From Octopus vulgaris (Eukaryota): a DNA stretch of 64,000 bases. Shown here piece after piece: positions 2,110-48,354 of the stretch; position 1 is the first letter of the stretch, and every line of letters begins with the position of its first letter. Location: NCBI GenBank assembly GCA_951406725.2, contig OX597816.1:135966001-136030000 (forward strand), given 5' to 3'. The position numbers were made by a program, and so were the translations under genes. The notes below the pieces were generated by a model that was not told the origin of the DNA, made no database searches, and worked only from the letters and a program-made list of their open reading frames with translations.

Positions 2110-2172
2110 CACAGAAAATTATCACAAAATTATCTTCGAATTATTCTAGTACCTTCAAATTATCACAGAAAA

Positions 2173-2259
2173 TCCATGCTGATGAAGAATATGGTTAGTA
2201 AAGTATATTTTTTAATGTTCTTTATGAAAAAACCTAATTCAGAAACGCGCGTCCATAGA
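2173..2259 (+). ncRNA. Type I hammerhead-ribozyme-like motif (Penelope pLTR type)
   Basis: CTGATGA 2179-2185, long AT-rich stem II, GAAA 2242-2245, stem III AC-GCGC-GT, GTC triplet 2251-2253, stem I ATG/CAT. Confidence 0.62.
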
Positions 2260-45431: not shown

Positions 45432-45639
45432 CATACATACACACATACATAGGTTCAGGTGTGGTTGTGAGATAAGAAGCTTGCTTCCCAACCACATGGT
45501 TCTGGGTTCAGTCCCACTCTATGGCATCTTGGGCAAGTGCCTTCTACTACAGCCTCAAGCTGACCAAAGACTTGTGAGTGGATTTGATAGGCAGAAACTG
45601 AAAGAAGCCTGTCATGTATAAATATACATAATATATATA

Positions 45640-45801
45640 TATAGTTCTATATTTAAGAGATGAGGAATTGTGTACATTAATTACATTTGACGGATATTTG
45701 TTTGTTGTTAACACGTTTTGGCTGATATACCCTCCAGCCTTCATCAGGTGTCTTGGGAAAATTTCGAACTTGGGTTCTCATTCCTAAGGTATTTTTTGAT
45801 G

Positions 45802-45835
<34 letters not shown>

Positions 45836-46046
45836 CATCATCACTATTATTATTATTATTCAGGTCACTGCCTGGAATCGAACTCGGGATCTTGGGGTTA
45901 GTAGCTTGCACTCTTAACCACTATGCCATATGCCCACGGGCACATGGTGTAGTGGTTAAGATAAAGGCTGGAGGGTATATCAGCCAAAATGTTGTGTTAA
46001 CAACAAACAAGATGAGGACGAATATCTGTCAAATGTAAATAATGTA
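45640..46046. mobile_element. Head-to-head pair of tRNA-headed elements carrying a hammerhead-like 3' module
   Basis: Minus copy from 45935: GGGCATATGGCATAGTGGTTAAGAG...GAGTTCGATTCCAGG, (AAT)n, then GACAC-CTGATGA-AGGCTG...CAGCC-AAAAC-GTGTT; internally deleted plus copy from 45938. Confidence 0.78.
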
Positions 46047-46201
46047 ATATATATATATATATATACATACATATATATGAAGAGTGTTGTAGTTCACTTG
46101 AAGCATTGTAGTACAGAAGTAGAATAAGAAATTAAAAGGGAAAGAAGTCACTGCATTGTTAGAAGCTTTCCTCATTTTCCTTTTCATTTATCATTTTACT
46201 T

Positions 46202-47320: not shown

Positions 47321-48354
47321 AAATGTTGATACTTGAGTACTGAGAGCTATTAATGATATATTTGAAGAAATATGAACCAGATTATTTATTCAGTAAAGAA
47401 TTTAGGGTCCAACTAACTCTTCTAAACCTCTTCTCATATAAAAACTTGTAAAGTACCTCTATATGGTCCTGATATGCTACAAATAGCAACCTAATTACCT
47501 TAAAACTACACTTTATCATCTTTACAAAAACCAAAAAAGCCACATTTGATAATGTAGTCCTAGATGCATTGTCTGAAAATAAGATGGTATGGTCATAGTA
47601 GGAATCTAATAATAATTGCTTTCTTTAATTAGAAGTAATCTGGCATTAAACAACAAAAAGCCCAATAGATTTGAAATGTTTGTCATTACTGTTTTAACGT
47701 CAGCTTTTCCATGCTTGCATGGGTTGGGCAAAGTTTAATGTGGCAGATTCTCTACAGCCAAATGTCTTTCCCATCGCCAACCCTCAACTATTTCCAAGTA
47801 AGGTAATATTTTCCCCCTGGCCAGACATGTTTTTACAGAATTTTGAAAATGAATAACTTTGCCTGTATGACAGTGGCACTCATTTACATCTATTGAGCAA
47901 TGTCAAGACAAGGGCACACACACACACAAATATGTGATGGGCTTCTTTCAGATTCCATGTACCAAATCCACTCACAAGGCTTTGGTTGGCCAGGGAATAT
48001 ACTAAGACTTTTGCCCAATGCAACTGAATCTGAAACCATGTGATCGGAAAGTAAACTTCTTAATCACACAGAATTGCATGCACTAAGTTAGAAACTGTCC
48101 TACATTTTACTGTTCATTAGAATAGGAACATATAAAGGAATAAAAAGTTTGCCAGATACTTGTTTCTAATAAACTGACTTTTCAGAAATTCGGAAAATTC
48201 CACCAAAACATTGTCTTTGTATAACAAGGATACCAGAATTAAAGATGTTTAATAGTTCTGAATTTATATATTACCCTGTATAACAAAGTTGTTGTTGTTG
48301 TTGTTTTGTTGTTGTTGTTGCTGTTGTTGTTATTATTATTATTATTTTTTTTTT

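Follow-up and report, generated by a model that had tools for sequence, protein, structure and literature searches.

The window analysed here is a stretch of 64,000 nucleotides of the Octopus vulgaris genome (G000:C3:135966001-136030000 in a 2.8-Gb assembly), and the locus of interest within it consists of two unequal arms inserted head to head in a (TA)n target. The long arm (45643..45940, minus strand) is a pLTR piece that runs from a tRNA-like head to the distal 3′ end, tail included. The tRNA-derived head (45861..45940, minus strand, with tRNA position 1 at 45935) carries an A box motif, TGGCATAGTGG (45918..45928, minus strand), and a B box motif, GTTCGATTCC (45874..45883, minus strand). 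It is followed by an (AAT)n(AAC)n spacer (45801..45860, minus strand), probably the 5′ UTR of a downstream ORF. The likely start codon of this Poseidon-type ORF lies at 45779..45781 (minus strand); in tandem copies, the frame runs through the hammerhead into the ORF. The remnant of a minimal type I hammerhead ribozyme (45710..45752, minus strand) comprises GACAC (45748-45752), CTGATGA (45741-45747), stem II (45720-45739), and AAAAC-GTGTT (45710-45719), all on the minus strand, and is predicted to be dead, with G12 changed to A and 3 nt (GTT) missing at the predicted cut site. The arm ends in a Penelope “tail” of ~30 nt (45643..45672, minus strand), the segment between two classes of 3′ ends, which is present in the minus arm only.

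The short arm (45933..46046, plus strand) contains head positions 1-27, an internal deletion that joins head position 27 to the hammerhead core, a hammerhead remnant in which the 3 nt at the cut site are retained, and the proximal 3′ end. Given the loss of GTT from the minus arm and the internal deletion of the plus arm, neither arm holds an intact ribozyme. The two heads share an 8-nt overlap in a self-complementary junction (45927..45946), within which the tRNA-like starts at 45935 (minus) and 45938 (plus) lie 2 nt apart, and the 5′ boundary of the family (head −2/−1) maps to ~45941-45942. The (TA)n target borders the insertion on the left (45631..45642) and on the right (46047..46065), and at this locus a target duplication is indistinguishable from the microsatellite. 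The motifs, the head-to-head arrangement, the 2-nt spacing, and the start at 45938 were all present where the original prediction had placed them. Two other features of the window were recorded. A different tRNA-SINE-like repeat adjoins the insertion (45450-45620) and has an inverted partial copy 2.3 kb off (47930-47986), and a second hammerhead-like motif (2170-2257, plus strand), CTGATGA...GAAAC-GCGC-GTC, the stem II region of which is long and rich in AT, is unrelated to the Penelope/Poseidon-type family described below.

Both the tRNA-like head and the hammerhead were recognised by motif and alignment only. Rfam recognised neither a tRNA nor a hammerhead, and ARAGORN made no tRNA calls in the window or in any of 49 family loci (49/49 without a call). 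The head of a better-kept copy (L219) was closest to host tRNA-Arg genes among 11 tRNAs compared (49-51 of 73 positions identical, z 7.6-7.8). The head has no tRNA fold or tRNA score and is not a tRNA gene. A separate locus (L096, G000:C12:25267077-25270148) has seven tRNA calls within 3 kb, of which most are tRNA-Cys and some have variant anticodons.

An exact 24-base head pattern matched the genome 4,051 times, against 0 for its reversed control, so the head family is not a product of chance; since the copies are ~90% identical among themselves, this count is a lower bound. Several heads share upstream sequence, which is the end of a reverse transcriptase (RT) ORF. Thirty loci were fetched with a piece of the ORF, and after the query locus and one locus with a match that stopped early were left out, the ORF end led into the head in 28/28 informative loci and, in 27 of these, further into the hammerhead module or tail. 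On the other side, a search with the 5′ part of the ORF returned many tandem copies in which the tail continues directly into the ORF start. In natural copies, one frame opens with an ATG that precedes the ribozyme and continues across it into a Poseidon-like N-terminus, and the ribozyme-coded peptide motif opens the full-length relatives P0005, P0124, and P0128 (3 of 35 long proteins). The order of the unit is ORF end, tRNA-like head, (AAT)n, ORF start enclosing the hammerhead, two fixed 3′ ends, and the remaining ORF.

Based on the contiguity with the ORF at both sides, the head, spacer, ribozyme, and tail together make up the pLTR, a partial-tandem repeat that contains the ORF start, as is characteristic of Penelope-type elements. 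Judged from its sequence, this pLTR would be the 3′ UTR of one unit and the 5′ UTR plus first codons of the next. We regard it as nearly certain that the locus is the pLTR of a Penelope/Poseidon-type element, and the 3′ module, for which the original prediction had asked whether it matches the pLTR of an autonomous Penelope-like element (PLE), belongs to the pLTR of this coding element. The module was also present in assembled RNA contigs from runs labelled as three organisms; these contigs carry no start or strand information. One locus (L246, G000:C2:16238337-16239137) consists of 5-6 tandem 150-bp units, each combining the final 118 nt of the ORF with the initial 31 nt of the head.

Pfam RVT_1 was matched in the frames of L052 and L243 (E 1.6e-5 and 2.6e-6; below the curated cut-off) and also in P0005. 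Of the 819 covered columns, 468 were identical to P0005, and the commonest codons ran without a stop. A VYSIPCSCG...GKT motif follows the RT in this family. The Pfam GIY-YIG domain had no match in proteins of the Penelope/Poseidon-type family or in P0005 and is present (precomputed) on the homologues P0022, P0050, and P0079; the type was assigned from the architecture and from the absence of the CxxC linker of a co-resident Neptune-type family. Relatives P0001-P0008 are at 54-70%; DNA was retrieved from relatives at 35-57%, which were without the head. Phenylalanine was lower in the 8 nearest proteins (0.027 vs 0.033, too weak a difference for use), and a search for solved structures returned none that was informative. 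No intact ORF was found among 145 scored matches (of 10,401 candidates), so the family looks inactive in this genome.

The Neptune-type family, which was the main result of the genome search with Pfam GIY-YIG, was considered as the partner of the tail-bearing copies and was rejected, as its 30 loci share nothing with the tail; it was reused as a control. This Neptune-type Penelope family (L067, L072, and others) is young, with numerous open frames of 781 codons, and at L069 a different hammerhead is present 1.3 kb downstream, in both orientations.

The 3′ ends of the copies fall into two classes ~30 nt apart, and insertions consist of a long and a short arm placed head to head, usually within a 10-16 nt duplication. 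Among 45 head-to-head pairs, 38 combined a long with a short arm, one was short with short, none was long with long, and the other six involved truncated or ORF-running arms. A target duplication of at least 10 nt (mode 13 nt) was present in 34/56 long/short pairs, compared with 2.5% in a mismatched-pair control. An inverted partner, a tail at one end, and a target duplication form the PLE signature as described in the available text of two sources (10.1101/2021.04.23.441226, PMC3846280), and the idea that Penelope machinery made the insertion is thereby upheld. Thirty heads were also sampled by position, without selection; the tail lay downstream in 23, an inverted partner was present in 21, and an upstream extension toward the ORF was found in 4. 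Head and ribozyme thus co-occur as had been predicted, and their chance nesting is rejected. Six of the seven tail-less heads were inspected, and each led into (AAT)n and then into other sequence. At L122, L140, L147, L216, and L234, other mobile elements have landed in the (AAT)n spacer, as they often do, and part heads from tails. At L018, L024, and L026, recurrent internal deletions have fused the A-box region with the head end via short shared motifs.

Intact copies, L015 and L219 among them, fit the minimal hammerhead in their core, stems I and II, extra base before stem II, and palindromic positions 15.2-16.2. The original prediction had read the two window arms as implying a GAAA consensus with a decayed CpG, and this was confirmed across the family, where the position is G in 121 arms and A in 41, the ratio found at another CpG of the element (118:40). 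The G12 to A change is ordinary CpG decay. Stem variation among copies of this single family reflects decay only, and relatives are known as protein only. Folding energies of the hammerhead were unremarkable (z −0.3 to −0.7), and a dimer fold did not recover the two cores.

Of 168 arms, 24 could not be scored at the predicted cut; among the other 144, a 3-nt deletion directly next to this cut was present in 42. In arms that were not selected on the tail of the window, it occurred in 26 of ~132, with the next commonest deletion in 3, making it ~9 times commoner than any other deletion, and it was unlinked to non-adjacent variants. Slippage as the sole cause is disfavoured, given that a neighbouring perfect AACAAC lost 3 nt in 2 arms versus 26. 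There are about even odds that the deletion is the scar of an RT jump from the 3′ to the 5′ cleavage product via a shared GU; a co-active in-frame (master) variant could be the other source. No pile of copy 5′ ends was found at the predicted cut site. Copy 3′ ends lie beyond it by ~55 and 85 nt, and the 5′ ends of truncated copies are scattered along the tail. The deletion state was discordant between the two arms in 11/33 pairs, where 12.6 would be expected under independence, and the arms of the window are also discordant. That arms differ in this way argues for copying from different RNA molecules and not for fold-back.

The 5′ ends of the copies were located by counting genome matches to three patterns of equal specified length. 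One inside the head had 4,051 matches, one that spans the ORF/head junction had 609, and one covering the 40 nt immediately upstream of the head had 616. This is a 6.7-fold drop at the tRNA start. Of the cDNAs that reach the head, approximately 85% end where it starts; the number of those that continue stays level across the following 40 nt. In a set of 50 heads with no inverted head next to them, upstream agreement was 0.54-0.68 at positions −2 to +4 and ~0.3 from −3 outward, with 0.30 at a decayed CpG (head +5). The A box starts 14-15 nt downstream of this boundary (head −2/−1), which is the usual spacing between start and A box in tRNA-type Pol III promoters.

Animal Pol III terminates at runs of four or more T (T4+). 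The coding strand of the element was read over ~2.9 kb as the commonest letter in each column (median depth 28-32 copies) and contained no T4+ runs, compared with 5.2 (P = 0.004) or 2.9 (P = 0.04) in shuffled sequences. A codon-aware test over 796 codons also found 0 T4+ runs where the expectation was 2.7 (P = 0.03) or 4.8 (P = 0.003). No significant deficit was seen in six control ORFs; one of them (L204) was low, with 2 runs against 4.4 (P = 0.08-0.13). In natural open frames, 21 of the Penelope/Poseidon-type family contained 13 T4+ runs against 58 expected, 11 Neptune-type frames contained 43 against 31, and 11 other frames contained 43 against 37, with five low-complexity frames tallied apart (7 against 7). 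Since the copies descend from one ancestor, the deficit counts as one observation of moderate strength, with P values from 0.003 to 0.04 depending on the null.

The locus is best explained as a two-armed insertion of a pLTR piece from a coding Penelope/Poseidon-type retrotransposon, the tRNA-derived A/B-box cassette of which is likely its own Pol III promoter; we hold this account as a whole with moderate confidence. Use of Pol III by the element appears fairly probable. Copies that start at the head, taken with the lack of T runs that would stop Pol III, point to a whole element read by Pol III, and full-length transcription of the coding unit by this polymerase may be put a little short of an even chance. 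The fullest version of the account is an autonomous element wholly under Pol III, in which a tRNA-Arg promoter was captured, terminators were purged over 2.9 kb, thousands of SINE-like run-offs were produced, and the 3-nt scar records hammerhead cleavage in vivo. This version remains tentative, slightly more doubtful than not.

The T-run deficit is predicted by Pol III read-through and by none of the rival explanations. The strongest of these, which we consider unlikely, takes the cassette to be a passenger, a tRNA-derived SINE that landed in the pLTR of a Pol II-driven Penelope and the A and B boxes of which are unused. Known PLE promoters are of the Pol II type, and a natural hairpin located at the 5′ boundary of the head could, with no promoter involved, stall RT or favour snap-back. 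In ORF-linked copies this boundary is crossed by a near-palindrome, an inverted head adjoins 38 of 91 heads, and the available text on rotifer Penelope describes palindromes at pLTR 5′ ends and self-priming (PMC3846280). Snap-back would yield identical arms, yet the 3′ ends of the arms differ and their deletion state is as discordant as that of unrelated arms. The boundary also persists in the 50 heads that have no inverted neighbour, and the passenger explanation does not predict the shortage of T runs.

Explanations that give the short copies a life of their own were less probable still. The original prediction was of a hybrid between a SINE and a retrozyme that had borrowed a Penelope tail, and in this form it failed, as the head, spacer, and ribozyme are native to the pLTR of the autonomous element. 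A Pol III SINE that propagates independently from master copies of its own, with a borrowed Penelope ribozyme tail and mobilisation in trans, is improbable, although ~85% of heads are without an upstream ORF and both promoter boxes are kept in short copies, where re-transcription would be possible. Against it, the tail, like the head and spacer, is native to the autonomous unit, and none of the 15 polymorphic tail columns, compared across 168 arms, distinguishes arms that start at the head from those linked to the ORF once a correction is applied (lowest P = 0.006). The short copies also end at RT start sites, without the downstream sequence that anole Poseidon requires according to the available text of PMC11167929. 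The family has the tRNA-derived head with A and B boxes of a SINE; it is not a non-autonomous family distinct from its partner, and in place of a LINE-type 3′ end (poly(A) or simple repeat) it has two fixed ends inside coding sequence. A non-LTR retrozyme, the ribozyme-to-ribozyme monomers of which circularise and undergo rolling-circle reverse transcription, is very improbable. One locus (L158, G000:C2:2734207-2735862) does hold ~10 head-less units of ~216 bp with (AAT)n, hammerhead, and long tail, and animal retrozymes derive from pLTRs according to the available text of a preprint (bioRxiv 10.64898/2026.07.22.740005). Yet the copy ends, with 3′ ends past the cut and 5′ ends spread, are not at the cut site, and most L158 units have a dead ribozyme and carry the 3-nt deletion. 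This was the one multi-unit array of the tail module among fetched loci, where the inverted pair is usual and the tandem non-coding units of retrozymes are rare. Each L158 unit is apparently inserted in the spacer of the next.

Under the favoured account of a coding element with its own Pol III promoter, Pol III would initiate 14-15 nt ahead of the A box in the upstream pLTR and would read the entire ORF for want of a terminator. The RT/endonuclease would then make a staggered cut of both target strands, and each target end would prime reverse transcription at one of two internal sites, as has been demonstrated in vitro for anole Poseidon (PMC11167929, available text). Priming in the first pLTR would run off at the RNA 5′ end and give SINE-like arms of ~250 nt, and priming in the downstream pLTR would give ORF-bearing arms. 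Two cDNAs from different RNA molecules would be joined by the self-complementary 5′ end or by microhomology. More tentatively, RT may at times cross a ribozyme-cut RNA via GU microhomology, dropping 3 nt in frame. In the simplest reading, the short arms are run-off cDNAs from the RNA of the element itself, primed in the first pLTR; some secondary spread from short copies is conceivable. A Pol III transcript is normally uncapped. An ORF of ~850 codons on such an RNA would need another route of translation, to which the (AAT)n(AAC)n leader, rich in A and free of structure, may contribute; in yeast, Pol III pre-tRNAs have been reported to be capped (PMC13451320, in the part available).

As far as their available descriptions go, anole Poseidon PAc (PMC11167929), rotifer Pen2a_Av (PMC3846280), and D. 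virilis Penelope resemble the octopus element in having a single ORF with RT (and, in the octopus element, a putative endonuclease) and tandem pLTRs that include the ORF start. The Penelope/Poseidon PLEs described there also share a hammerhead over the ORF start, an inverted 5′ pLTR, a 30-40 nt tail at one end, a target duplication, and AT-rich targets, and in anole Poseidon the ORF likewise overlaps the hammerhead (PMC11167929). The octopus element differs in bearing a tRNA-derived A/B-box cassette where these descriptions place TATA/Inr or intron-overlapping Pol II promoters, in the piling of copy 5′ ends at this cassette, and in a coding strand without T4+ runs. Its hammerhead matches the minimal type I hammerheads of metazoan PLEs, as given in the accessible portion of PMC4209133, in CUGANGA, the extra base before stem II, G10.1-C11.1, GAAA, the loopless palindromic C15.2-G16.2, and a 5-bp stem I. 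That portion already notes opposite-strand hammerhead pairs 100-700 bp apart and does not describe the in-frame loss of 3 nt that recurs at the predicted cut in the octopus element.

The pairing of a tRNA-related Pol III promoter with a hammerhead that follows it is already known from Sm-alpha and Sj-alpha of Schistosoma (PMC6765202, PMC2770079, PMC8490949; available text). Those elements are non-coding, often tandem, and freed as monomers by cleavage, whereas in octopus the two modules sit in the terminal repeat of a coding element and the cut does not set the ends. A small-RNA-derived Pol III promoter inside a terminal repeat is likewise described for the TRIMp3 elements Cassandra, Helenus, and Ajax, but these are short non-autonomous LTR elements, the autonomous partners of which are argued to need Pol II (PMC10886601, in its available text). 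Crocodilian Tx1 LINEs (Kojima 2015, as cited in the available text of PMC4758252) are autonomous and have a small-RNA-derived 5′ end common to short elements; they differ in being LINEs and not PLEs, and in deriving that end from U1/U2 snRNA and not from tRNA A/B boxes. The word “tRNA” is absent from the available text on pLTR-derived retrozymes (10.64898/2026.07.22.740005), and Penelope is not mentioned in PMC9115989. In the literature surveyed, as far as available text extends, no PLE with a tRNA-type promoter and no Pol III-transcribed autonomous retrotransposon was found; Repbase or Dfam may already hold the family. No hammerhead cleavage in vivo was detected in anole RNA-seq, according to the part of PMC11167929 available.

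The thousands of copies form a countable record that bears on two points of PLE biology, the making of the inverted arm from a second RNA template and hammerhead cutting in vivo. In practice, SINE-like pLTR copies of this kind are prone to mis-annotation as SINEs. Autonomous retrotransposons are usually considered to rely on Pol II (or on Pol I co-transcription), and Pol III is assigned to short passengers without coding capacity. Were a coding Penelope driven by a tRNA promoter, this division between Pol II and Pol III would fall, the question of translation from an uncapped RNA would arise, and an autonomous element would be seen to give rise directly to SINE-like repeats.
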